Positions 6,333 through 64,000 are shown, counted from the first letter of the stretch. The stretch is 64,000 bases of DNA from an uncultured Nostoc sp. (GCF_964247315.1 NZ_CAXTTT010000005.1:20373-84372), one strand, 5' to 3'. Notes: a model not told the origin generated them from the sequence alone. Numbers and translations are program-made.

Positions 6333-6404
6333 GCGGGTGTAATTCAGTGGTAGAATGTCACCTTCCCATGGTGAACGTCGTGGGTTCGAGTCCCATCGCC
6401 CGCT
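6333..6404 (+). tRNA. tRNA-Gly (anticodon CCC)
   Basis: Folded by hand: 7-bp acceptor stem GCGGGTG/CGCCCGC, D arm ATTC/GAAT, anticodon stem TCACC/GGTGA with loop TTCCCAT, T arm GTGGG-TTCGAGT-CCCAT. 72 nt, CCA not encoded. Confidence 0.9.
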
Positions 6405-8228: not shown

Positions 8229-10583
8229 ATGAACGAAGCCGAAACCCGTGCCGAACTAATTGACCCCGCACTAAAAGCCGCAGGCTGGGGAGTTATTGAA
8301 GGTAGTCGCATCCGCCGCGAAGTTATTGCCCCTGGTCGCTTAGTTGGCAATGGTAAACGCGCTCAATCAGACATCGCCGATTATGTACTGGTTTATCGCG
8401 GTGAAAAACTCGCCGTTATCGAAGCGAAAAAACGCGACTTACGAGATACCGAAGGTTTAGGACAAGCCAAAAAATACGCCGAAAAATTGCAGACTCGATT
8501 TGCCTACTCCACAAATGGCATCGGAATCTACCAAGTAGATATGCACACAGGGGCAGAAGGCTACATCAACCAATATCCCACCCCGGAGCAACTATGGTCA
8601 GCCACCTTTAACGAAGATAATGAGTGGCGCGATCGCTTTGCTGCCATCCCTTTTGAAGACAAAAGCGGCACATGGGAAGCCCGTTATTATCAACATAATG
8701 CCATTAAGCACGTCTTAGAAGCAATCTGCCAAGGACAAAACCGGATTTTGTTAACGATGGCAACTGGCACAGGTAAAACCTTCATCGCCTTCCAACTCGC
8801 CTGGAAACTCTTTCAAAGCCGTTGGAACCTCAGCCGACAACCCACCCGTCGTCCGCGAATTTTGTTTTTAAGCGATCGCAATATCTTAGCCAACCAAGCC
8901 TATAACTCATTCTCTGCCTTCCCCGACGATGCCCTCGTCCGCATCGACCCCGAAGCTATCAAAAAACGGGGTCGAGTCCCCAAAAATGGTAGTATCTTTT
9001 TTACCATATTCCAGACCTTTATGACCGGACGGGACGACGCTGGCAATCCTACGCCCAAATTCAGCGACTATCCCCCCGACTTCTTTGACTTCATCATCAT
9101 TGATGAATGTCACCGAGGCGGAGCCAGTGACGAAAGCACCTGGCGGGGCATTTTAGAATACTTCTCCCCAGCAGTACAACTGGGACTCACCGCCACTCCT
9201 AAACGAAAATATAACGCAGACACCTACGCCTACTTCGGCGAGCCAGTCTATACCTACGCCCTCAAAGACGGCATTAACGACGGGTTTCTTACTCCCTTTA
9301 AAGTCAGACAAATCGAAACTAACCTAGATGAATATATTTACAGCACAGAAGATGAACTGATCGAAGGTGCAGTAGACGAAGCCAGAACCTACACTGAAGC
9401 TGACTTCAACCGCATAATTGAAATTGCCGATCGTGAACGCTACCGGGTGCAGTTGTTCATGGAAGAAATCGACCAGAATCAAAAAACTCTGGTGTTTTGC
9501 GCCAACCAACCCCACGCTCTAGCTGTGCGGGATTTAATCAACCAAATGAAGATTAGCAGTGACCCTAATTACTGTGTTCGCGTCACCGCAGATGATGGGA
9601 AACTCGGCGAACAGCACCTCAGCAACTTTCAAGACAACGAGAAAACTATCCCCACCATTCTCACCACCTCCCAAAAGCTATCCACTGGGGTTGATGCTCG
9701 GAATGTTCGTAACATTGTGCTGATGCGCCCCATCAACTCGATGATTGAATTTAAGCAAATAATCGGTCGCGGTACTCGCCTATTTGATGGGAAAGACTAC
9801 TTCACCATTTATGATTTCGTCAAAGCCTACGAACACTTTAACGATCCTGAATGGGATGGTGAACCCCAGGAACCTGTTCTTGTCAAGATTGCCAGAGGGG
9901 GAGAGGAATCAGGTACATACAACGACTCTATAACAGATGGTAATATAAATAGAGGCAAAAATAGAAACGAAACTACAGAAGTTCCCAACCCCAAAACCAT
10001 CAAAATCAAACTCGCTGATGGTAAAGAACGCACTCTCCAGTATCGAATGTCTACCAGCTTCTGGAGTCCGGATGGTAAACCTATGAGCGCCGCAGAATTT
10101 GTGGAACGTCTCTTTGGTGAAATTCCTGAACTATTCAGAGATGAAGACGAATTAAGAGCAATCTGGAGCCGCCCTGATACCCGTAGAGCTTTATTAGAAG
10201 GACTGGCAGAGAAGGGCTACGGGGAAGAACAACTCACAGAAATTAGTCGCCTGATTGATGCTGAGAAAAGCGATTTATATGATGTGCTAGCTTATATCGC
10301 CTATGTCTCACCACCTATAAGCCGCCGAGAGCGTGTCCTCGCTCACAAATCATTAATTTTCTCGCGCTATATCGGCAAACAGCAAGAATTTCTCGACTTT
10401 ATACTCGAACAATACATCAAAGCTGGGGTGGGGGAACTTGATCGCACTAAATTACCTCAACTGTTAGAGTTAAAATATCATACTGTTCGTGATGCTGTTG
10501 AAGAATTAGGGAGCGTTGCGAATATTAGTGAAGTATTTATCGGGTTTCAGCAGTATTTGTATTCTCAGGACATAGTAGCTTAA
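8229..10583 (+). CDS. hsdR: type I restriction enzyme R subunit (HsdR, EcoEI-like), with no hsdM/hsdS nearby
   Basis: N-terminal MNEAETRAELIDPALKAAGW nuclease domain with VIEAKK, helicase motifs MATGTGKT and IIDECHRG, QKLSTGVDA, and an EcoEI_R_C-like tail. Confidence 0.9.
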   Translation: MNEAETRAELIDPALKAAGWGVIEGSRIRREVIAPGRLVGNGKRAQSDIADYVLVYRGEKLAVIEAKKRDLRDTEGLGQAKKYAEKLQTRFAYSTNGIGIYQVDMHTGAEGYINQYPTPEQLWSATFNEDNEWRDRFAAIPFEDKSGTWEARYYQHNAIKHVLEAICQGQNRILLTMATGTGKTFIAFQLAWKLFQSRWNLSRQPTRRPRILFLSDRNILANQAYNSFSAFPDDALVRIDPEAIKKRGRVPKNGSIFFTIFQTFMTGRDDAGNPTPKFSDYPPDFFDFIIIDECHRGGASDESTWRGILEYFSPAVQLGLTATPKRKYNADTYAYFGEPVYTYALKDGINDGFLTPFKVRQIETNLDEYIYSTEDELIEGAVDEARTYTEADFNRIIEIADRERYRVQLFMEEIDQNQKTLVFCANQPHALAVRDLINQMKISSDPNYCVRVTADDGKLGEQHLSNFQDNEKTIPTILTTSQKLSTGVDARNVRNIVLMRPINSMIEFKQIIGRGTRLFDGKDYFTIYDFVKAYEHFNDPEWDGEPQEPVLVKIARGGEESGTYNDSITDGNINRGKNRNETTEVPNPKTIKIKLADGKERTLQYRMSTSFWSPDGKPMSAAEFVERLFGEIPELFRDEDELRAIWSRPDTRRALLEGLAEKGYGEEQLTEISRLIDAEKSDLYDVLAYIAYVSPPISRRERVLAHKSLIFSRYIGKQQEFLDFILEQYIKAGVGELDRTKLPQLLELKYHTVRDAVEELGSVANISEVFIGFQQYLYSQDIVA

Positions 10584-19872: not shown

Positions 19873-20830
19873 AACGCACGCCAGCGGTTTCTAAAGACAA
19901 ATCTTGAAACATGGGTGTGCTGAGATAACGTTCGCCAAAGGAAGGCTGAATCATCACAATTAAACGTCCGGCATTTTCTGGACGTTTACCTATTTGAATT
20001 GCAGCACACAAAGCTGCACCAGAGGATATGCCAGACAATAAGCCTTCTTCTTTTGCCAAACGTCGCCCATAGGCGATCGCTTGTTCATCGCTGACTCTAA
20101 TTACTTCATCAACCAATTCTAGGCGGAGGACATCTGGGATAAATCCAGCCCCAATACCTTGAATTTTATGTGGCCCAGCTTCACCGCCAGAAAGAACTGG
20201 GCTGTTGCTGGGTTCAATTGCGATCGCCTTAAAAGTTGGCTTGCGCTGTTTGAGTACTTCGGCAATCCCAGTAATCGTTCCACCAGTACCTACCCCAGCA
20301 ATGACGATATCTACTTCCCCGTCTGTATCTGCCCAAATTTCTTCAGCAGTGGTTTCTTGGTGAACTTTGGGATTGGCAGGGTTGCGGAACTGTTGCAGCA
20401 TGAAAGCATTGGGAGTATTAGCCACAATTTCTTCGGCTTTGCGAATTGCTCCTCGCATACCCTCAGTTCCTGGTGTCAATTCTAAAGCTGCACCATAAGC
20501 TCTAAGCATAGCCCGTCGTTCTTGGCTCATAGTCTCTGGCATCGTCAAAATCAAACGGTAGCCACGTGCTGCTGCTACCATCGCTAGAGCAATTCCTGTA
20601 TTACCTGAAGTAGGTTCAACTAAAATGGTCTTTCCTGGGAAAATTGAGCCAGCCGCTTCTGCCGAGAGTACCATACTTAACCCAATGCGGTCTTTCACCG
20701 AAGCCGCTGGGTTCATCCCTTCTAATTTAACAACTATCCTTGCTACTACTCCCTCAGCTTGAGGAATCTTGTTCAGTTGAACTAAAGGAGTTCGTCCAAT
20801 CAGTTCTGTTACGTCTTGAGCAATCCGCAT
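19871..20830 (-). CDS. cysK: cysteine synthase A (O-acetylserine sulfhydrylase)
   Basis: PLP-lysine motif [17 protein letters not shown] and GTGGTITG. Confidence 0.95.
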
Positions 20831-21850
20831 TAGATATCTCCGAAAATCCTAAATTTTAGTACAGAGTATTTACTTCTAACAATAAGCTTTGATGTATTTA
20901 TTTTGCCGTTTCATGCCAATGAGCGCATATAGTATGTATTCTAACTAAACCACACAATATGAAAGCTTAGGAAGAACTTTTATTAGATATTCCCATTGAT
21001 TCTCGCTTGAGAAGAGGCTAGCTTATCATTCTTATATTTTACCATTTGGAATTGTTAACTATTGTCTCTTGGGCTAAGATTCAATTTTTGTAATTCTGTA
21101 TATATAAATATTTTTTCTTTATTTTCTACTTGTTAGGAAAATATAATAATTGATTTTTAAAATATTTAATTGTTTTTCCTGATTTATTAGTCTATCTTTA
21201 TCAAGAGACATTAATATTTTCTTTTGAGTACAGATTTTGTCAGTCCAAAATTACATCAAAAATAGTCTTTAACCATTGCCTACATTGCTTTAAAGTTGAG
21301 TGCAAAAACACCAGAACCCTACCTCGTAAATACTAGAACCCCGTCCGAAAAACACTAGCACCCATACCCCAATGAATTTTTAAAATACTTATTAGGTGAG
21401 GCTTATAGACTTTGAGTACTATTCTAATGAATTTAATAATCTTAACAGGGCCGGGGTAAACTGTTTTGTGGAGAGCGGCTGATATAAATCGTATAGGATT
21501 TACGCAGAGATTCCCCTCTACCCCCCAACATTCCTGAGCGCAAGCTTAGTGAACTAGGGGGGACTTCTTAATCTCTCTTTTGAGAGTAAGATGAAACCAG
21601 ATGACCGAATCTAAGTGCGTTACTTCTGAGTGAATAATCCTATGTTTTGTGAAAAGGTTGGTAACTTTTTATTAGTCAGAGATCAGTGGTGATGAGAAAA
21701 ATAACTGAAAACTAACGATTGTGAAAATTACCAATTACACATATTTTAATATCAAAACTGTTTGATAGGTAGAAATATACAACTACTTTAGAGAAACAGC
21801 AAAAGATATTTTCTTACTGGGTGCATACTACCTAGCGAGGGAGAGCCAAG

Positions 21851-53642: not shown

Positions 53643-54980
53643 TCAAAACTCAGCGCCTACAATTCCTAACTCTTGGAACTGCTTAACTCTCGCTTCTTCT
53701 GCCTCTAAAAACAGGTTGCCGATGCCAAACACAAGTTCCATTGTGCCGCGATAGCCAACTTTGGTAAATTGACCATTACCTAAGCGGTCATAAATGGGCA
53801 ATCCGAGACGATAAAGAGGAATTGACAGTCGTTTAGCGATCGCACCAACATTCGAGTTACCAATTAGCAAATCAGAGCCATCTGCTAAACTCTCAAAGTC
53901 TTCCAAATCGCCGATGGTGACGCTTTTAACCGAGAGTTTTTCTAGTAGTGGCGATCGCGTAGTTGTCACCGCCGCATGAATTTGCGCTCCCATCGATTGC
54001 AGGAAATGCACTGTTGACCACAGCAAATCTGGTTCCAGCGCCAGGGAAACTCGTTTTGCACCGAAGTAAAAGTGGGTGTCCAGCATCGCATCTTGCAACT
54101 GACGACGTTGGCGGCGGTATTTTTCGGGTACGCTATTACCGCTCAGAATCGCCAATGCTTGGATAAATTCATCTACTGGTTCTAATCCTGTCAGTTCGCT
54201 AAACACCTCATAAGGTGTGTCAAAGCGTTCTTCGAGAATCTTGGCAGCCTCCCGCATACTTTCACCTAATGCGATGGTGAAAGCAGAACTACCTACTTCT
54301 CGTAGCTGTTTTAAGGTAGTGCCACTGACTGTAACCGCACTATAACCATCCTCTAAATGACCATCTAGGGAAGCGCCAAGGTCAGGTACAAAGATCGGCA
54401 CTAATCCAAAGGATGTAATTATCTCTTTGATTTCCTGTACATCCCCAGGTGTGAAAGCAGAACCCGCCAAAATCGTCACTTGTTCAGTTCTGATTTCACC
54501 TGCGCGAGGAATTTCCTGAACGATGCTTTCGACAGCAGCAGTAAAGCCGTCTTGCAACGCACCTTTAAAATCTGGGGTAGGTGCAAAAACGATCGTCAAA
54601 TCATTCAATTCGGGGTGGCGAGCACGGATTTCTTTTAGAAAACCCTCGATGTCATCACCTCTAGTTTCAGTCAACCCAGTACTACATAAACCAATAATTT
54701 CTGGGTTAGCTTTTTCCACCAGAGTCAGAATTGCTTGCTCCACATTCTCTTCACCACCCAAGATTGTAGTAACTTCCGTCATCGCTGTGGTAGCTAGGGG
54801 AATCGCTTCCCGGAAATGCCGCACCAGCACAACTTTGGCGAAAGCAGTACAACCTTGAGAACCGTGAAATAAGGGCATTATCCCTTTCAATCCCAAAAAG
54901 GCTAAGGTTGCACCCAAAGCTTGACTTTGCTTGAGGGGATTAACTGTCAGTGCTTTGTTAGAAGTGGTAACGATCGCCAT
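53643..54980 (-). CDS. nifN: nitrogenase FeMo-cofactor biosynthesis protein NifN
   Basis: NPLK.SQ.LGA..AFLG...PLFHGSQGCT. The start is set at the ATG at 54980, which is preceded by GGAGA. Confidence 0.95.
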   Translation of the reverse strand: MAIVTTSNKALTVNPLKQSQALGATLAFLGLKGIMPLFHGSQGCTAFAKVVLVRHFREAIPLATTAMTEVTTILGGEENVEQAILTLVEKANPEIIGLCSTGLTETRGDDIEGFLKEIRARHPELNDLTIVFAPTPDFKGALQDGFTAAVESIVQEIPRAGEIRTEQVTILAGSAFTPGDVQEIKEIITSFGLVPIFVPDLGASLDGHLEDGYSAVTVSGTTLKQLREVGSSAFTIALGESMREAAKILEERFDTPYEVFSELTGLEPVDEFIQALAILSGNSVPEKYRRQRRQLQDAMLDTHFYFGAKRVSLALEPDLLWSTVHFLQSMGAQIHAAVTTTRSPLLEKLSVKSVTIGDLEDFESLADGSDLLIGNSNVGAIAKRLSIPLYRLGLPIYDRLGNGQFTKVGYRGTMELVFGIGNLFLEAEEARVKQFQELGIVGAEF

Positions 54981-55001
54981 TAAACTATCTCCTGATCCCA
55001 C

Positions 55002-55137: not shown

Positions 55138-56517
55138 TTAAACTTCCTCCTCGTCCCAAGGAGCGGGTTTGCGTATTTGTTCCCAAATCGGGCTATACAG
55201 AGCTTCGTACAATTCCCGCGCCATTTCAATCATCCCCACATAACCTGCATAAGGATGATGGCGTTCTTGGTTGATATCAAGGAAAGGAATCCGAGCTTTC
55301 AAAGCGGTGTATTGGTTACGTCCACCAGCAATCAGCATATCTGCTTTGGTGTCTTTAACCACTTGTAGCAATTCCTTAGCGTTGCCCTTCTCCAACATAA
55401 TGCCATCGTTGCCGAGCAAGTTCTTGATTTTGGCTTTATCTTCTTCAGTACTTTTACGAGTACTGGTAGCAACAACTTCAATGCCCAAGTCCCTAGCCGC
55501 TGAAATAATCGACCAACTCTTGACACCGCCTGTATATAAAACAACCCGCTTACCTTTGAGTCGAGCGCGATAGGGAGCTAGTGCCAAATCTAAAGCAGCC
55601 GTTTCTTCTGCAATTAGCTTTTCTGTCCGCTCCTGTAAATCGGGATTGCCTAATTTAGCAGCAATGTTTCGCAGACAGCGATTCATATCATCGATGCCGT
55701 AGAAAGACTCTTCAATGTATGGGATGTTGTAACGCTCCTCCATCTTTCTCGCCATATTGAGCAACGCTCGTGAGCAGATCATGACGTTAAGCTTGGCGCG
55801 GTGGGCGTAGCGAATTTCATCGTAGCGAGCATCACCCGTAATTTTAGACAAAATACGGATGCCTAATTTTTCTAACAGTGGTGTTACTCCCCACATTTCC
55901 CCGGCGATATTGTATTCACCGATTAAGTTAATATCATAGGGCGTTGTATGTTCCGGTTCTGCTGTACCGACAACATATTCTAATAAAGATTCACCACCAA
56001 AACGATTGCCGAGATTTTTACTGCCAATGAATCCTGGGGCAATGACGGGAACAACAGGAATACCGATTTTCTCAGCCGCAGCTTTGCAGACAGCATCCAT
56101 GTCATCGCCAATTAAGGCTGTAACGCAAGTAGCATAGACAAATACTGCTGCTGGTTGGTAACGCTCTTTGAGTTCCAGAATTGCTTTGTAGAGTTTCTTT
56201 TCGCCACCGAAGATGACATCATTTTCACCCAAGTCAGTGGTAAAGCCCATTTTGTAGAGTTGCGGGCCAGACGACAGACTACCACGACTGCCCCAGGAAT
56301 TACCAGCACAGGCGATCGGCCCGTGGACTAAATGAGCAGCATCTGCGATCGGCACTAGGGAAATCATTGCACCATCAAAAGCGCAGCCCCCTTGAGCCGC
56401 GCCAGGTTGTGCCTGTTGAGCGCAAGATTTATTTTTCTTTTCTGTTTGTTTGTGCTGATTATGTTCGCATCCTGTCTCAGTCAGCAGTTCGTTGATTTTG
56501 CCTTGGGTGCTTTTCAT
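55138..56517 (-). CDS. nifE: nitrogenase FeMo-cofactor biosynthesis protein NifE
   Basis: GGCAFDGA...[10 protein letters not shown] motifs. Confidence 0.95.
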
Positions 56518-57088: not shown

Positions 57089-58624
57089 CTAACGAATCAA
57101 GTCGTAGGAAATATCTGTCTTAGAAGGAATGTTGGTGTTGCGATCGATTTCTTCAAACAGAGTATTTACAACCCAGTTAAGCAAGTTGATCACACCTTGA
57201 TAACCAATGGTGGAGTAGCGGTGTAGGTGGTGGCGATCCATGATGGGGTAGCCGATTCTCACCAGGGGAGTCTTGGTATCGCGCCATAGGTACTTACCGT
57301 AGGTGTTGCCAACCAGGAAGTCTACTGGTTCGGTGAACATTAGAGAACGCATGTGCCACAAGTCTTTACCAGGCCAAACAGTTGCATTCCTACCGAAGGG
57401 GCTAGAAGCAAGCAGTTCTTTCATTTCTGCTTCAAATACGTCGTTGCTGTTGTGAACCAAGATATGCACAGGTTCAGCACCCATTTCTAGCATAAAGCCA
57501 ACTACGCTGTATACTAAATCTGGTTCGCCGTAGATAGCGAAGCGCTTGCCGTGAATCCATGAGTGGGAGTCAGTCATGGCATCAACTGCCTGACCGCGTT
57601 CAATTTCCAATTGTTCGGGAATGGGGATACCACTCAGTTCGCTGAGTTTCATCAAGAACTCGTCAGTACCCTTAATACCCCAAGGACGGCAAACTGCGGT
57701 TGGTTGCTTCCACTCTTTTTCGATGTACTCGCGGGTTTTGAGCGTAGAGTGTGCTTGCAGAGCGATCGTAGCTTTAGCATTAATTGAATCTTCTGCATCT
57801 TCTAGCTTTGTACCACCTGGGTACATATTGAACTCACCTGTGTTGGGTGAATCCAGGTAGTCGCTGTTGTCAGCTAGAATGGTGTAGTCAAAGCCGAACA
57901 AGGAAGCAATCCGTTTGATTTCCCGGTTGTTGCCTACGTAGGTGTCAAAACCTGGGATGAAGTTGATCTTACCATTGCTGGTTTCTTTCTTATGACCTGC
58001 TGTCAGGTTAGAAAGAATTCCCTTCATCATGTTGTCGTAACCAGTGATGTGGGAACCAACAAAGCTAGGCGTGTGAGCGTAAGGTACTGGGAAATCTTGA
58101 GGAACTGAACCAACTTCCTTGGCGTTGTTGATGAAAGACTGTAAGTCATCACCGATTACTTCTGCCATACAGGTGGTGCAGACAGCGATCATCTTGGGCT
58201 TGTAAAGTTGGTAAGAGTTAGCCAACCCGTCAATCATGTTTTGCAGACCACCAAACACGGCTGCATCTTCAGTCATTGAAGAAGATACACCAGAAAATGG
58301 TTCTTTGTAGTGACGGGTTAAGTGGGTGCGGAAATAAGCAACGCAACCTTGAGAACCTTGAACAAAAGGTAGAGTACCTTCAAAACCAACAGCAGCAAAG
58401 ATTGCTCCCAATGGTTGGCAGCCTTTAGCAGGGTTAACAGTTAAAGCTTCACGAGCGAAGTTCTTTTCACGATAATCCCAACCCTTCGTCCACTCTGCAA
58501 CCCGTTGTACTTCTTCGGTTTCGTGAGCATTTTCAAACTGCTTTTTGTTTTCAAATAGCTGTTTGTACTCTGGTTGGTGGAATAACTCTACGTGGTCTTG
58601 AATTTTTTCGGGATTCTGAGGCAT
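57089..58624 (-). CDS. nifK: nitrogenase molybdenum-iron protein beta chain
   Basis: [22 protein letters not shown] and [11 protein letters not shown] motifs, 511 aa. Confidence 0.97.
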
Positions 58625-58788: not shown

Positions 58789-58850
58789 TTCCCAACTCCC
58801 CTCTGGGGTTTTAGCCCCAGGTTATCCTTACTTATCTAGCTCCCATTTCC

Positions 58851-59035
58851 CTAGACGGCAGCTTTAGCTTCAACTTTAGCTTCAGCTTCAGCTTTAGCTA
58901 CAGCTTTCTTAGCGTTAGCTTTTTCATTCCAAGGAGCGCCAATTAATCCCCAGGTTGGGCTGTTAAGTGCCAAGTCCATGTCACGTGCGAAGATGGCGAA
59001 GCCATCGTAACCGTGATAAGGGCCGGAGTAATCCT
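58851..59035 (-). CDS. nifD: nitrogenase MoFe protein alpha chain, 3' segment only (last 61 codons); the rest lies beyond the excision element
   Basis: Hand translation: [60 protein letters not shown]. The reading frame breaks exactly at the 11-bp core. Confidence 0.9.
59025..59035. other. XisA recombination core (CGGAGTAATCC, the reverse complement of GGATTACTCCG) at the nifK-proximal border of the nifD element
   Basis: Identical to the 11-bp direct repeat known for the Anabaena PCC 7120 nifD element. Confidence 0.85.
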
Positions 59036-59262: not shown

Positions 59263-60573
59263 ATGAGAACGAAAGTACTACTAGAATTAGAGCAAGTTAA
59301 TCTGCGTTTGAAGTCTGCAAAGGCAAAGGTGACAATTAGAGAATCGAATGGAAGTCTGCAATTACGGGCAACGTTACCAATTAAGCCGGGAGACAAAGAT
59401 AGTAATGGTACTGGGAGAAAACAATACAATCTCAGTTTGAATATTCCCTCTAACTTGGATGGACTCAAGACGGCTGAGGAAGAAGCCTATGAATTAGGGA
59501 AGTTAATCGCTCGTAAAACGTTTGAATGGAATGATAAATATTTAGGTAATGAAGCAATTAGAAAAGATTTTCAAACCATAGGAGAATTACTCGAAAATTT
59601 TGAAGAAGAGTATTTTAAAACTCACAAACGTACAACTAAAAGCAAACATACTTTTTTTTATTACTTTTCCAGAACCAAGAGATTTACGAATCCCAAAGAC
59701 TTGGCAACTGCTGAAAATCTGATAAGTTCAATTGAACAAGTCGATAAGGAATGGGCTAAGTATAATGCAGCTAGAGCGATCGCTGCATTTTGTGTGACAT
59801 TCAACATCAAAATTGATTTATCTAAATATTCCAAAATGCCAGAGAATAATTCCCGCAATATCCCTACAGATGTGGAAATAGCTGAGGGAATTATTAAATT
59901 TGAAGATTATCTGAATAACAGAGGTAATCAAGTTAATCAAAATGTTCAAAATAGTTGGCAACTTTGGCGCTGGACGTATGGAATGTTAGCAGTTTTTGGT
60001 TTACGTCCACGAGAACTTTTTATAAATCCTGATATTGATTGGTGGTTGAGTCAAGAAAATGTAGATTTAACATGGAAAGTTCATAAAGATTGTAAGACTG
60101 GTGAAAGACAAGCATTACCATTATATAGGCAATGGATTGATGACTTTGATTTGAAAAATCCGAAATATTTAGAGATGTTGAAAAGTGCGATCGCTAAAAA
60201 AGATAACACTAATCATGCGGATATAACGGCGTTAACACAGCGAGTTAGCTGGTGGTTTCGTAAAATAGGATTGGATTTTAAACCCTATGATTTACGTCAC
60301 GCTTGGGCAATTCGGGCGCATATTTTGGGGATACCAATTAAAGCGGCGGCGGATAATTTGGGGCATAGTGTGCAAGTTCATACGCAAACTTATCAGCGTT
60401 GGTTCTCATTAGATATGCGGAAGTTGGCGATTAATCAGGCGTTGAGTAAGAGGAATGAAGTTGACTTGATTAGGGAGGAGAATGCTAAGTTGAGGATAGA
60501 GAATGATAAATTGAGATTGGAGATTGAGAAGTTGAAGATGGAGCTAGTTTATAAGCGGAGTGAAATTTGTTAA
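59263..60573 (+). CDS. xisA: site-specific tyrosine recombinase XisA
   Basis: Position and orientation next to the nifD core. C-terminal catalytic motifs (YDLRHAWAIRA, GHSVQVHTQTYQRW). Confidence 0.9.
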   Translation: MRTKVLLELEQVNLRLKSAKAKVTIRESNGSLQLRATLPIKPGDKDSNGTGRKQYNLSLNIPSNLDGLKTAEEEAYELGKLIARKTFEWNDKYLGNEAIRKDFQTIGELLENFEEEYFKTHKRTTKSKHTFFYYFSRTKRFTNPKDLATAENLISSIEQVDKEWAKYNAARAIAAFCVTFNIKIDLSKYSKMPENNSRNIPTDVEIAEGIIKFEDYLNNRGNQVNQNVQNSWQLWRWTYGMLAVFGLRPRELFINPDIDWWLSQENVDLTWKVHKDCKTGERQALPLYRQWIDDFDLKNPKYLEMLKSAIAKKDNTNHADITALTQRVSWWFRKIGLDFKPYDLRHAWAIRAHILGIPIKAAADNLGHSVQVHTQTYQRWFSLDMRKLAINQALSKRNEVDLIREENAKLRIENDKLRLEIEKLKMELVYKRSEIC

Positions 60574-60767
60574 TAAAAATGATGTGGTGCGTTACGCTGC
60601 ACGATAACGCACGCTACTAACTTACTCTTTAAATTTCCGTATAATAAATAGTTATATTTCTGACTGTTATCTGTAAAGACAGTAGTCTAATGTTACCTGT
60701 AAAGTCATCAAAGCTATGTAGCTGTTAGACTATTCAGAGTATTCGCTCTGCAAGCAAAATATTGTTA

Positions 60768-62549
60768 ATGTATATTTACAAACTGACCCGGATCGTATTC
60801 AACAATGGAGAAGAGGTTGAACCAGGAAACCTTACCGTTATTATTGGCCCGAATAATGCTGGAAAAAGCCGTACTTTAAAAGACATTGCTCAAAAAACCA
60901 CAAAAAGTACACCTCTACCTGCTGTTGTTGTTAGCGATGTTGAGTGGACAACCCCACAGAATCTACAAGAGCTATGCGAAGCCTACAGTTTGAAACGCTA
61001 CCAAGACGAATATACCAGCTGGATGTTTCGTATACTAGCTCCTGAACTGTCCCAGGAACACCAAGTCAGTGCAAACTTTTGGTCTGAAGAAGATGAGGTA
61101 ATTTCCCATATTTTATCTAATAAATCCATGTTTGCCGAGTATTTTGGTATTGCTATGGTTGCATTTATCACCACAGAACACCGTCTTCAACTGGTAAAAG
61201 AAGCTGCTAGTGCAGCCCATGAAAGACAAGAAGCAAATCTGCTGCAAACTTTCTATAATGCAGAAAGTTCTCTAGAGAATGATATACAAAAATTAGTCAA
61301 GCGTGCTTTTGGCAAAGAAATTAAGTTAGATTTCACTGTACCGCAGCGATTACTTCTTCGAGTTGGAAATGATTTTAGTTTAATTCCTTCAGATCCAAGA
61401 GATGCTAGACAGCCAATGCAGGGATATGACAAGTTGGATGATCAAGGGGATGGAATCAGAAGTTTTGTAGGAATTACCACTGCATTGTTGGCGATTAAAC
61501 GAAACGTATTTCTAATCGATGAACCAGAGGCTTTTCTTGCTCCGCCCCAAGCTTTCCGGATAGGTGAGTTTATTGCAGAACAAGCAAACAGTAAACGCCA
61601 AATAATTTTAGCTACACACAGCGCCGACTTACTGCGTGGTCTTTTAAGCAAGACAACCGATCTCACTATTATTCGGATTGACCGTAGAGATGAAACCAAC
61701 TATTTCAATACACTTGACCCAAATCGCTTACGGGAATTAGTGAACGATCCTCTATTGAGTTCATCTCGTGTTCTGGACGGACTTTTTTACTCCGGTGTAG
61801 TTGTGGTAGAAGCAGATAGTGATGGGCGGTTTTACCAAACTGCCTCTAACAAGCGGAAAAATAATATTGATTTATATTTCGTTAATGCAGATAACAAGCA
61901 AACTGTTCCACGGATTACCACACTGTATCGGGATATGGGAGTGCGCTGCGTAGGAATTGTTGATTTTGATGTGTTAAATAACCCGGCAGAATTTAAAAAG
62001 CAGCTAGAGGCTCTAAAATTCAGTGAAGAAGGCATTACTCGAATGCTGACTATTCGTGAAGAAATTGCAAAAGCAGCTAAAGAACTTCCTTGTGATGAGA
62101 GGTTAAAGAAGGTCAAAGAGCAAATGACAACACTATTAGCCTCTCTCAACGAGGTACAAGGTAAAGCTTTTGCTTCTGATGGCGAAGCTAAATCTGAAAA
62201 AGAAAAATTATTGAGCCAAATTGAACGTCGAGCTAGAGAAATTGCAGACTCGACCAAGAACTGGAAGGATTTCAAGGAGAAAGGGCGAGCAGCCTTGCCA
62301 CCAGAATTACAATCTAGCTTTGACGATTTATGGAAAACCTGTTCAGAAAGAGGGCTATTCATCAATCCATGTGGTGAGTTAGAGTCAATGCTCACACATC
62401 GAGGTATTCCTTATACAACAGATGATAAACGGGGATGGATTACAAAAGCCTTGTTAATGCTTCCCGGACTCGAAGTTAATGACAATGAATATCCCTGGAA
62501 ATTTATCAAGGAGATTCAGGAGTATCTTATAGGTTTGGAAGATCAATAG
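60768..62549 (+). CDS. OLD-family/PARIS-like ABC ATPase fused to a Toprim-like (DUF4435-type) nuclease domain
   Basis: Walker A GPNNAGKS, signature-like DDQGDGIRSF, Walker B VFLIDEPEAFL, ATHS. Then VVVVEADSDGRFY ... GIVDFDV (E...DxD Toprim pattern), followed by a coiled-coil tail. Confidence 0.65.
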   Translation: MYIYKLTRIVFNNGEEVEPGNLTVIIGPNNAGKSRTLKDIAQKTTKSTPLPAVVVSDVEWTTPQNLQELCEAYSLKRYQDEYTSWMFRILAPELSQEHQVSANFWSEEDEVISHILSNKSMFAEYFGIAMVAFITTEHRLQLVKEAASAAHERQEANLLQTFYNAESSLENDIQKLVKRAFGKEIKLDFTVPQRLLLRVGNDFSLIPSDPRDARQPMQGYDKLDDQGDGIRSFVGITTALLAIKRNVFLIDEPEAFLAPPQAFRIGEFIAEQANSKRQIILATHSADLLRGLLSKTTDLTIIRIDRRDETNYFNTLDPNRLRELVNDPLLSSSRVLDGLFYSGVVVVEADSDGRFYQTASNKRKNNIDLYFVNADNKQTVPRITTLYRDMGVRCVGIVDFDVLNNPAEFKKQLEALKFSEEGITRMLTIREEIAKAAKELPCDERLKKVKEQMTTLLASLNEVQGKAFASDGEAKSEKEKLLSQIERRAREIADSTKNWKDFKEKGRAALPPELQSSFDDLWKTCSERGLFINPCGELESMLTHRGIPYTTDDKRGWITKALLMLPGLEVNDNEYPWKFIKEIQEYLIGLEDQ

Positions 62550-62582
62550 TGCGATCACATCTCTCCTGTAGCGTCTATTGAT

Positions 62583-63152
62583 TTACTCAAAAACAATGCC
62601 GCGATAAATTTCCGCCATCGGCAAATCAATACTAACTGAATCCAAAGCAAGAGATAGCTCTAAGCCGCTAAAATCACTGAGCAACCAACCTTTGTCTTGT
62701 TTACTGTAGCGTTCCACAAAAGGTTCATCCTGCTCGACTAATAAATATTTGCTAAAACTCGCAATTGAGCGATACATCCGAAATTTACTGAGTCGGTCGT
62801 AATCTGCGGTGGAAGGAGATAGAACTTCAACAATCAAAATGGGATTTAAGACTTCATCTAAACGTTCACCATTTAGTTGCGGTTCGCCGTCAAAAATCAT
62901 TACATCTGGATATACCCCACGTCGATATTCAGGAATCCACAGCCGTAAATCGCTGTTAATTGGCTCGAATTGAGTATCGCGCATCATAGTACTAAAATAG
63001 GTCAGAATGTTCCGACCGATACGGCTGTGTTTGAGGGTTCCTCCGGGCATGGGTACAATTTCTCCATCTCGATATTCGCTGCGTCCTTCAGCTTTTTCTT
63101 CGATCGCACGATATTCATCCAAGCTGTAGCGGCGCGAGATGGTAGAAATCAT
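62583..63152 (-). CDS. Uma2-family (DUF820) endonuclease
   Basis: YSLDEYRAIEE...EYRDGEIV.MPGG...H....PDVMIF...VEVLSPST motif set. The start is set at the ATG at 63152. Confidence 0.8.
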   Translation of the reverse strand: MISTISRRYSLDEYRAIEEKAEGRSEYRDGEIVPMPGGTLKHSRIGRNILTYFSTMMRDTQFEPINSDLRLWIPEYRRGVYPDVMIFDGEPQLNGERLDEVLNPILIVEVLSPSTADYDRLSKFRMYRSIASFSKYLLVEQDEPFVERYSKQDKGWLLSDFSGLELSLALDSVSIDLPMAEIYRGIVFE

Positions 63153-63274
63153 AGGTTGTAAGCGATCGCATTGGCTATAAGACAACAATATTATTTTGTC
63201 ACAGATTTGCTTGTGAGGTAATATCATACTCCAATGCGATGCCTGCGGCAGGCTACGTCAATGGCAACCATCTA

Positions 63275-63913
63275 TCAACTGTTTTGCACCATCCAAACAA
63301 AAAATCCAAGAATTTGTTCCACTGGTGGGAGAGGATAATCGATCAAGTCGATAGTGACAAGATTATCCTCCAGCTTCAGGAATCGCCATTGCGTACCACT
63401 GCTAATAGAACCATAGATTACGGCAACTGGACGATTTTTGGCGGCGTTGAATTTTTGTGCTGCAACCATTTCTGCAATACATTGTCCAAACCTAGTTCTT
63501 AAATCTGCTTTTTTTGCTTCTACAATGACAATTGCAGGCGCTTCAATTTCTAGTACTTCCGGCGAACGACTCAAAAGAAAATCACACATTCCATTCAGTC
63601 CAACTGCCTCATCGACTGTAAAATCTTCTCCAGAAAATAAGCTAATTTGGCGATTTAATATCCGTCTAACTTCTAATAATACAGGGTAAATTATTCCTTC
63701 GGAACGAGCTTTTTCACTTGCTGAAGAAGCAAGTGGTAGACTTTCTTCAAGATATGCCGTCAGTGTAGCAGATGATTCAATAGGTTCGGTGGCAGGAATG
63801 AATCGCCCACCCTCCTGTGTTTTTAACCCAAAAGCCTCTTTAACTTTACTGATAGTTGTAAACTGACTATAAGGCATAAGTGATGAGTACGGGATGACTG
63901 GTGGAACATGCAA
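63275..63913 (-). CDS. hypothetical protein with PD-(D/E)xK nuclease-like motif
   Basis: CDFLL...VIVEAKK pattern, 212 aa. Confidence 0.5.
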   Translation of the reverse strand: MHVPPVIPYSSLMPYSQFTTISKVKEAFGLKTQEGGRFIPATEPIESSATLTAYLEESLPLASSASEKARSEGIIYPVLLEVRRILNRQISLFSGEDFTVDEAVGLNGMCDFLLSRSPEVLEIEAPAIVIVEAKKADLRTRFGQCIAEMVAAQKFNAAKNRPVAVIYGSISSGTQWRFLKLEDNLVTIDLIDYPLPPVEQILGFFVWMVQNS

Positions 63914-64000
63914 GTCAGATTATCGCCGCAAACCACGCCCAGTAGTGAACCAAATAGTGAAGCTTGTGAAGTGATTGGCAGTGAATCAGTAAACCTATTA

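Follow-up and report, generated by a model that had tools for sequence, protein, structure and literature searches.

A predicted OLD-family nuclease gene in a hypervariable, apparently defence-rich slot beside xisA of a Nostoc nifD excision element

Knowledge of heterocyst interruption elements dates back to 1985. Their nature, beneficial to the host or merely selfish DNA, is still called a mystery (PMC4874684). This question bears on a stretch of 64,000 nucleotides from an uncultured Nostoc sp. (NZ_CAXTTT010000005.1:20373-84372; the whole stretch is called the window below), in which three open reading frames (ORFs) follow directly after xisA, the recombinase gene of a nifD excision element. 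They lie at 60768-62549 on the plus strand (gene 1) and at 62583-63227 and 63275-63913 on the minus strand (genes 2 and 3). An initial annotation of this DNA had described the three as nuclease-rich, defence-like cargo and had assigned gene 1 to the OLD-family nucleases or to a fused PARIS protein, gene 2 to Uma2 and gene 3 to the PD-(D/E)xK-motif proteins. The ORFs are present as described, and all motifs quoted for them (GPNNAGKS, VFLIDEPE, ATHS, VVVEADSDGRFY, GIVDFDV and VIVEAKK) occur in the translations. What do these genes encode, and which of them are cargo? The analysis presented here identifies gene 1 as a predicted OLD-family nuclease gene and as the sole occupant of a slot with strongly varying content, and places the other two genes in the backbone of the element.

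Gene 1 encodes a predicted stand-alone OLD-family ATPase-Toprim nuclease of 593 amino acids, counted from an ATG. Initiation at a TTG two codons further upstream would lengthen the protein to 595 amino acids, and the ATG start is supported because the consensus of the homologues opens with MYxYxLT. Residues 1-335 (60768-61772, plus strand) form an ABC-type ATPase region that matches the Pfam families AAA_21 (2e-14) and AAA_15 (5e-11); the profile of the gene 1 family matches structure 6p74. The family alignment shows invariant residues in the Walker A motif (G27, N29, G32 and K33), in a signature-like motif (D224, G227, D228 and G229) and in the Walker B motif (D251 and E252), together with H284. 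The Toprim core comprises residues 339-403 (61782-61976, plus strand) and aligns with OLD-like_TOPRIM (PF20469) over its full length (positions 1-67 of 67), with a score of 22.6 bits against a cut-off of 23.2 bits. When 42 members of the gene 1 family were scanned singly, 40 matched this model, the best with 5.9e-10. Residues E348, D352, D399 and D401 of the Toprim core are invariant in the family alignment. This pattern, a Glu with an Asp at +4 and a DxD motif some 50 residues further on, equals that of the metal ligands E377, D381, D431 and D433 of the OLD enzyme of Thermus scotoductus (Ts OLD; PMC7049728). The C-terminal region (residues 405-593, 61980-62546, plus strand) consists of a helical hairpin of residues ~405-527, followed by a short strand, and carries the conserved residues K503, E537, E539 and K554. 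The cluster of E537, E539 and K554 may supply the remaining ligands.

Profile and structure comparisons extend this assignment beyond the ATPase region. The best PADLOC model for gene 1 is 'Old' (7e-22), which aligns with residues 245-489, from Walker B through the Toprim region, and the models for GajA, ATPase-Toprim_I-B (PADLOC) and the retron Eco8 effector (NCBIfam) likewise align over the Toprim region. Among solved structures, the class 1 enzyme Ts OLD (6p74) gives the best match to the profile of the gene 1 family (2.3e-8). The AlphaFold (AF2) model of the monomer, in which helices occur inside the ATPase region, has a mean predicted local distance difference test score (pLDDT) of 91 and a predicted template modelling score (pTM) of 0.85. 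In a Foldseek search the Eco8 effector, Ts OLD and GajA align with it over the full length and rank first (E 6e-9 to 2e-8); the SMC and Rad50 heads that rank next cover the ATPase alone. The Toprim assignment draws on the sequence profiles and the invariant residues, because a fold search with the C-terminal half gave no significant match. No helicase, reverse transcriptase or other partner gene was found beside gene 1 or beside its homologues in the loci L001, L004, L085, L086 and L087, and an Rfam search detected no retron RNA in the window. Since such partners are missing next to it, the organisation of gene 1 is that of class 1 OLD genes. Judged by its sequence, gene 1 is a divergent class 1-style OLD-family ABC-ATPase/Toprim nuclease gene.

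The location inside a nifD element, which the initial annotation had proposed, is borne out by an 11-bp core repeat, GGATTACTCCG, at 59024-59034 (minus strand) and by the adjoining 3' fragment of nifD (58850-59033, minus strand). The fragment comprises the last 60 codons and the stop codon of nifD, its translation is the C-terminus of NifD, and it begins exactly at the core, where the element separates it from the 5' part of the gene. The core forms the nifK-proximal border and recombination site, and the same sequence is given as the core repeat of nifD elements inserted at position ~1355 (PMC4874684 supplement). The tyrosine recombinase gene of the element, xisA (59263-60573, plus strand; stop codon 60571-60573), stands beside this border and is divergent from nifK (57089-58624, minus strand, 511-aa ORF), the chromosomal neighbour of the element. 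Its 436-aa ORF gives a weak Phage_integrase match, and orthologous XisA proteins have the domains XisAC_N and XisAC_2nd. With nifD split near its 3' end at GGATTACTCCG and xisA in this position, the window contains the nifK-proximal end of a nifD excision element of the position-1355 (PCC 7120) type. The element extends past the last base of the window (64000), so that only its nifK-proximal part is covered.

For comparison with related elements a scan with XisA was made using one genome per species. It gave 253 relatives, of which the 80 closest, with XisA proteins 88-94% identical across these species-level genomes, were compared; single loci of this work are labelled L001 onwards. In all of them nifK lies upstream of xisA, except in two truncated contigs (L022 and L063). 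The gene in the nifK position is 93-99% identical to that of the window in nearly all loci and 86-91% identical in L076, L077 and L080; in L001 and L004 it was found to carry the Pfam domains DUF3364 and Oxidored_nitro. In 79 of the 80 loci the core GGATTACTCCG occupies the same place, ~240 bp ahead of xisA; it was not found in L070. Both borders of the element are visible in L074, L075, L077 and L084.

The nucleotide comparison revealed a sharply bounded region of varying content next to xisA. In most loci blastn homology to the window ends at 60554-60622, no more than ~50 bp from the end of xisA, and it restarts mostly at 62579-62582 where the Uma2 gene has been retained. The break was also placed at 60565-60577. 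The hypervariable slot defined by these breaks (60578-62578) is ~2 kb long in the window, where the OLD-family gene is its sole occupant, and its edges are the stop codons of the convergent conserved genes xisA and Uma2. Among the 69 loci that possess both anchors the slot varies in length from 61 to 9012 bp (median 2164 bp) and shows 57 different gene configurations. Defence-type families are found in 38 of the 69 and toxin-antitoxin (TA) type families in 31; 55 carry one or the other, and five slots are empty. By its conserved flanks, its variable content and its wealth of defence and TA genes, as counted within these 69 slots themselves, the slot beside xisA appears to be a defence hotspot.

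The occupants are of diverse types. They include a Drt8-type (DRT8) reverse transcriptase (5e-125), an NB-ARC/APAF1/TPR STAND NTPase, a PD-T4-6-like kinase, an HNH protein and a Schlafen-like HATPase_c_4 protein. A 377-aa AAA_21 ATPase of the HEC-01A/AriA-like type (cluster c19) occurs with a 274-aa partner in seven loci, a trio of C5 methylase, HEPN and GmrSD_N/NsnA genes in six, and a PLD nuclease (PDC-S11) also in six. The TA-type occupants comprise PIN (VapBC-like), DUF433/DUF5615 and UPF0175/DUF3368 pairs. In addition, five clusters of recurrent occupants of 274-484 amino acids (c20, c22, c43, c67 and c155) have no Pfam or PADLOC match and are candidates for undescribed defence or toxin genes; such unmatched occupants are located at L040 13863-15068 (minus strand), L041 12237-13100 (plus), L065 12784-13608 (plus), L078 11362-12405 (minus) and L053 12085-13107 (plus).

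Clustering of the ORFs downstream of xisA gave a conserved backbone order in which optional Uma2, gene 3 and XisH-XisI-like genes are followed by genes for a DUF2267 protein, a dienelactone hydrolase, a methyltransferase and a histidine kinase. In the window the start of the conserved backbone is found at 63879-64000, which is matched in many loci by blastn (63879-63977 or to 64000) and precedes the DUF2267 gene in the relatives. Pairs of XisH/XisI-family genes (clusters c6 and c7) were observed just before the DUF2267 gene in L006, L008, L009, L011 and about 18 more Nostoc nifD elements; these families are known from the fdxN element of PCC 7120.

The two remaining genes after xisA fit this backbone. 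Gene 2 (62583-63227, minus strand; stop codon 62583-62585) is a Uma2 (DUF820) gene of the PD-(D/E)xK type, as the initial annotation had it, with a Pfam E value of 1e-29 (103.7 bits against a cut-off of 27) and a match to the PADLOC candidate family PDC-S03 (3e-22). It forms the right anchor of the slot. The ORF has 214 codons, and since relatives are mostly 189 aa long the true start is probably M26 at 63152 (189 aa). Full-length Uma2 genes occur in about 40 of the 80 related elements (median 189 aa), and remnants are found in many others. Gene 3 (63275-63913, minus strand, 212-aa ORF) has relatives of 200 aa, so that its translation probably begins at 63877 (200 aa). It matches the cas-associated PD_DExK profile of PADLOC (E 1.7e-48, 141 of 146 positions) and contains the motif IVEAKK, which makes it a candidate PD-(D/E)xK protein; a Pfam search gave no match, and a search of PDB sequences gave chance matches only. 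Gene 3 has 4618 homologues, the top 120 of which are 200-216 aa long (mostly 200-201), 83-97% identical and distributed over several Nostocales genera; nearly all carry the annotation hypothetical protein. Among the 80 related nifD elements, about 15 possess gene 3. As Uma2 is full-length in roughly half of these elements and gene 3 occurs in ~15, both are semi-conserved backbone genes and not swappable cargo. The view of a three-gene defence-like cargo is accordingly upheld for the slot, where relatives carry other defence and TA genes, and has to be narrowed to gene 1 as the only variable one of the three.

Gene 3 was also met beside other recombinases. Close homologues (>=81% identical, i.e. 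at least 81%) lie ~150-500 bp downstream of a different XisA/XisC-family recombinase gene, for example in L094 (8386-10603), L095 (8070-10603) and L103-L116, and in Cylindrospermum NIES-4074 a gene 3 homologue and a recombinase gene are found inside an element that splits nifH. In a metagenome scan a recombinase gene was located within 6 kb of a gene 3 homologue in 12 loci, in ~9 of them closely adjacent and in the same orientation. The recombinase-adjacent arrangement was never seen with homologues of 78% identity or less. A possible role of gene 3 is that of a backbone gene, or of a partner, of XisA/XisC-type recombinases, and not that of defence cargo.

Gene 1 itself is rare among the nifD elements. 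It was found in three of the 80 related elements, one copy being truncated (L020), and in three further assemblies discovered by protein look-ups; the assembly index contained no exact match to the 593-aa protein. The initial annotation had stated that the PCC 7120 element carries different cargo, and this is correct, as that element holds cyp110 and other ORFs (PMC1079853) and has no entry in the ATPase column of a published comparison (PMC4874684, Table C). Against three element-borne orthologues, gene 1 gives a ratio of nonsynonymous to synonymous substitution rates (dN/dS) of 0.17-0.28, a range which indicates purifying selection on the predicted protein. In the same pairs of loci, a small sample, the dS of gene 1 (0.10-0.16) is below that of the flanking xisA (0.26-0.38), which suggests that the gene 1 cassette spread more recently than the flanks diverged.

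In the collection searched, the gene 1 family has ~940 detectable members, many of them cyanobacterial. The 120 homologues listed are 45-94% identical, full-length ones have 581-680 aa, and their public annotation is 'AAA family ATPase' or 'ATP-binding protein'. In Microcoleus vaginatus a homologue (75% identical) stands alone among metabolic genes, whereas in a metagenome bin another one (64% identical) is near GmrSD and several Uma2 genes. In Anabaena sp. WFMT the homologue is split and adjoins an NB-ARC gene. As homologues occur away from nifD elements, gene 1 is best described as a mobile single-gene module and not as a component specific to the nifD element. A recent origin from a phage is not supported, since the relatives in phage and plasmid collections are all distant (24-38% identical), as are the three found in IMG/VR (28-39%).

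One locus has a different structure at this point. In L005 (11483-11590) the sequence retained from upstream of gene 1 measures 170 bp (window 60578-60745), and the homology then jumps to window position 63879; gene 1, Uma2 and gene 3 have been cleanly deleted from this locus.

Just after the xisA stop codon two alternative conserved leaders were recognised (window 60574-60640; first 75 nt in L005-L084), each of which occurs with varied cargo. Leader 1, the type of the window, contains a hairpin-like motif, GATGTGGTGCGTTACGCTGCACGATAACGCAC (motif A, 60581-60617, plus strand), that is common to loci with different cargo; leader 2 has a promoter-like motif with an inverted repeat, TGATAAATCATACCA...TATAATTTGCTATGATTTATGGGTGAAAAATCATC. 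The hairpin motif adjoins an IS200-like Y1 transposase gene (cluster c37) in four loci. It was found once in the window and is not a dispersed repeat there. The calculated fold of motif A (-12.3 kcal/mol) is no better than that of shuffled sequence, and the same holds for the results of promoter and terminator scans. Some slots contain additional internal copies of xisA sequence (corresponding to window 60103-60524), namely L030 (12199-12348), L031 (12200-12294) and L073 (12029-12605); these copies may be scars of past recombination. In xisA itself a 21-nt tandem repeat (60477-60543) encodes a coiled-coil-like tail of the protein (ENAKLRIENDKLRLEIEKLKME).

On the chromosomal side of the element, nifK is followed on the minus strand by nifE (55138-56517) and nifN (53643-55001), and a small Mo-nitrogenase-C-like ORF on this strand lies between nifK and nifE. 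A 6/18-nt repeat at 58859-58906 encodes the Ala/Lys/Glu-rich tail that ends NifD. In L001, a Nostoc metagenome-assembled genome, a second NifE-like gene is located ~11 kb past xisA (20696-21758, minus strand), its C-terminus being close to that of the window's NifE. This far-end PF00148 gene was considered as the 5' part of nifD and rejected because its translation is NifE-like; the border of the element in L001 is not reached. Elsewhere the window contains a type I restriction R-subunit gene with ResIII and EcoEI_R_C domains (8229-10583, plus strand), a single tRNA gene (6333-6404, plus strand) and, beside hyp genes, an apparently uninterrupted hupL (39488-41083, plus strand, 531 aa), so that no hupL element is present here.

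How can these observations be explained? We consider it rather probable that gene 1 encodes a single-protein anti-phage nuclease in a swappable slot and that the element acts as a small defence or addiction island equipped with a developmental recombinase. By analogy with the class 1 OLD enzymes P2 Old and Vc OLD, a dimeric ATPase would gate, through ATP binding and hydrolysis, a two-metal Toprim site formed by E348, D399 and D401 with D352 and the distal cluster of E537, E539 and K554. On sensing infection the enzyme would nick or degrade DNA, and this attack would bring replication of the phage to a halt, with the infected cell probably being sacrificed. Homologous recombination within the conserved flanks, xisA and Uma2, would swap the cassettes among elements, which is proposed because the breakpoints lie at stop codons, Uma2 remnants are common and some slots hold duplicated xisA fragments. 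Uma2 and gene 3 would belong to the element backbone, outside the exchanged part.

An unlikely alternative function of the same cargo is addiction, in which nucleases and TA pairs would harm or kill vegetative cells that lose the element and so keep a dispensable element in the lineage. Such a role would agree with the frequent occurrence of classic TA pairs (PIN/VapBC-like, DUF433/DUF5615 and UPF0175/DUF3368) in the slot, with the wide retention of an element that is dispensable in the laboratory (PMC4874684) and with the killing of recBC hosts by P2 Old (PMC7049728). However, no antidote gene lies beside gene 1, from which only 33 bp lead to Uma2, and a gene present in three of 80 elements cannot explain the retention of the element in general. 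Single-gene homologues moreover exist outside any element, in Microcoleus and in the metagenome island, and heterocysts, which excise the element, have no need to survive or divide, so that post-segregational killing is uninformative there. The sporadic distribution of gene 1, the truncated copy in L020, the split one in Anabaena sp. WFMT and the deletion scar in L005, where only the upstream leader is left, would also suit a recently acquired selfish or accessory gene that benefits neither host nor element and is decaying. We regard such a neutral hitch-hiker as somewhat less probable still, given that the ORF is intact with all catalytic residues conserved, that the dN/dS values are low among the element-borne copies and that about 940 homologues exist, with 45-94% identity among the 120 listed.

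It is very improbable that the nuclease is an accessory factor which aids excision by XisA, processes the excised circle, controls its copy number or has another non-defence role like that of Cran1. The position of gene 1 directly downstream of xisA on the same strand would be in line with this, Toprim and ABC ATPases are common in recombination and repair, SMC and Rad50 heads are among the fold matches and Cran1 offers a non-defence precedent (PMC12796447). Yet 77 of the 80 closest elements lack the gene, well-studied elements with normal excision among them, unrelated genes fill the slot elsewhere, and homologues occur far from any xis gene. Hardly any weight can be given to the possibility that gene 1 encodes a plain ABC-type ATPase, either of a transporter or AbiEii-like, that lacks a nuclease domain. 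NCBIfam gives weak matches to ABC-transporter ATPases and the public annotations of the homologues name an ATPase or ATP-binding protein, but the full-length OLD-like_TOPRIM alignment in 40 of the 42 members contradicts this case, which the initial annotation had put forward as the one that would undo its proposal. The invariant residues E348, D399 and D401, the alignment of OLD, GajA and Eco8 profiles and structures past the ATPase domain and the absence of transporter partner genes also speak for the nuclease.

Several points weigh against the proposal of an anti-phage nuclease in a defence hotspot. The Toprim match of gene 1 itself is 0.6 bits under the Pfam cut-off, and the C-terminal half alone gave nothing significant with Foldseek (PARIS complex, E 0.16; Ts OLD, E 0.32). 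A number of the labels counted as defence-type are PADLOC candidate families (PDC-S03, PDC-S11 and PDC-M52B), and the comparison covers the best 80 of 253 XisA relatives, which are nearly all Nostoc. It is homology and genomic context that suggest a defence or addiction function. Members of the OLD family are not always defensive, as Cran1 acts in the archaeal cell cycle (PMC12796447), and curing of the nifD element had no visible effect on growth or N2 fixation under laboratory conditions, in tests that included no phage challenge (PMC4874684).

A bearing of the cell type on this cargo had been suggested from the loss of the element from heterocysts, with expression confined to vegetative cells. 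'Lost' is imprecise, for the excised nifD element persists as a circle in heterocysts, as stated in a paper citing Golden et al. 1985 (PMC11249958), and the premise of expression in vegetative cells only is thus not secure. In a wider and quite speculative view, to which we attach a low probability, XisA/XisC-type heterocyst elements in general would be developmentally controlled defence islands. If so, the cassette slot at the recombinase side would continually sample anti-phage and TA modules, the cargo would explain why a dispensable element is retained inside nifD across the Nostocales, and excision in the terminal, non-dividing heterocyst would alter the expression or dosage of suicide-type nucleases there, so that immunity is tuned by cell type within a single filament.

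We found no paper on defence or TA cargo, or on a variable slot, in heterocyst elements, in a literature library that is incomplete and gives no proof of absence. The turnover between defence-type and TA genes among closely related Nostoc suggests two reasons for retention, phage protection and addiction, and the slot provides a small natural collection of cyanobacterial genes that are candidates for defence. To the defence field it would be one more case of defence systems that ride on integrated elements, which is not surprising and does not overturn current understanding. With the protein encoded by gene 1 the OLD family would gain a divergent member of class 1 style whose helical insertion is unusual.

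To our knowledge, few class 1 OLD enzymes have been studied. Similar to P2 Old, Ts OLD (6p74) and Vc OLD, the gene 1 protein has about 590 amino acids, the arrangement E...D(+4)...DxD and no helicase or reverse transcriptase partner, and like the genes for P2 Old and Vc OLD it is carried by an integrase-bearing element. It differs from the solved OLD proteins in a low identity of 12-14% in structural alignments, in the ~120-aa helical hairpin after the DxD strand and in a conserved C-terminal module, neither of which gives a significant match to a solved structure. Class 1 OLD proteins such as P2 Old defend against phage (PMC12392090), and P2 Old requires both its ATPase and its nuclease activity in vivo (PMC7049728). 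The DNA nickase Vc OLD prevents replication of the phage genome via abortive infection and is located, together with the TA system DarTG, on an integrase-bearing defence element (PMC12392090).

Gabija GajA (class 4 OLD) and the retron Eco8 effector (class 3) are likewise among the top full-length fold matches, but unlike these systems gene 1 has no adjacent GajB-type helicase, retron reverse transcriptase or noncoding RNA, and its scores against the GajA and Eco8 profiles are far below the thresholds of those families. Membership of Gabija was rejected in view of the weak GajA profile matches (2.6e-9 to 5.7e-7 among the matches listed) and the missing helicase. With PARIS, which consists of the ATPase AriA and the DUF4435 Toprim protein AriB, gene 1 shares the combination of an ABC ATPase with a Toprim domain, AriA profiles match its ATPase, and the PARIS complex is the nominal top match of the C-terminal model, although at a non-significant E value of 0.16. 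Of the two identities proposed initially, the OLD family is supported for both ATPase and Toprim regions by Pfam, PADLOC and Foldseek, while a fused PARIS AriAB was rejected, as there is no DUF4435 match, the AriAB profile covers only residues 248-293 (46 residues of the Walker B stretch) and the fold E value is the one just given.

An ATPase gene in nifD elements has been noted before. Hilton et al. 2016 listed an 'ATPase' as exclusive to the elements in six position-1355 nifD elements and assigned no function to it (PMC4874684). Gene 1 resembles it in being an ATPase-type gene in a nifD element. Its identity with that gene was rejected on the taxon lists, which point to the 377-aa AAA_21 ATPase c19 instead: close relatives of the latter come from Dolichospermum/Anabaena, Scytonema hofmannii and Nodularia and broadly match the taxa of Hilton et al. 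(Anabaena spp. and Scytonema hofmanni), whereas the named relatives of gene 1 do not. By taxon distribution, not by sequence, the ATPase of Hilton et al. is probably the c19 ATPase.

The slot as a whole is comparable to the hotspots of P2/P4-type prophages and their satellites, of the integrative and conjugative elements of the SXT type and of the V. cholerae phage defence element, all of which have sharp bounds and conserved flanks by an integrase or recombinase gene. Rousset et al. 2022 reportedly placed the P2 old gene in such a hotspot. As in the known defence hotspots, close relatives have different genes in the nifD slot, and defence and TA genes are abundant there. Unlike the known carriers of such hotspots, the nifD element is domesticated, is excised only when heterocysts differentiate terminally and is passed on vertically within nifD. 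As defence hotspots by the integrases of prophages, satellites and integrative and conjugative elements are well known, the apparent hotspot beside xisA would be another case of this kind, on an unusual carrier.

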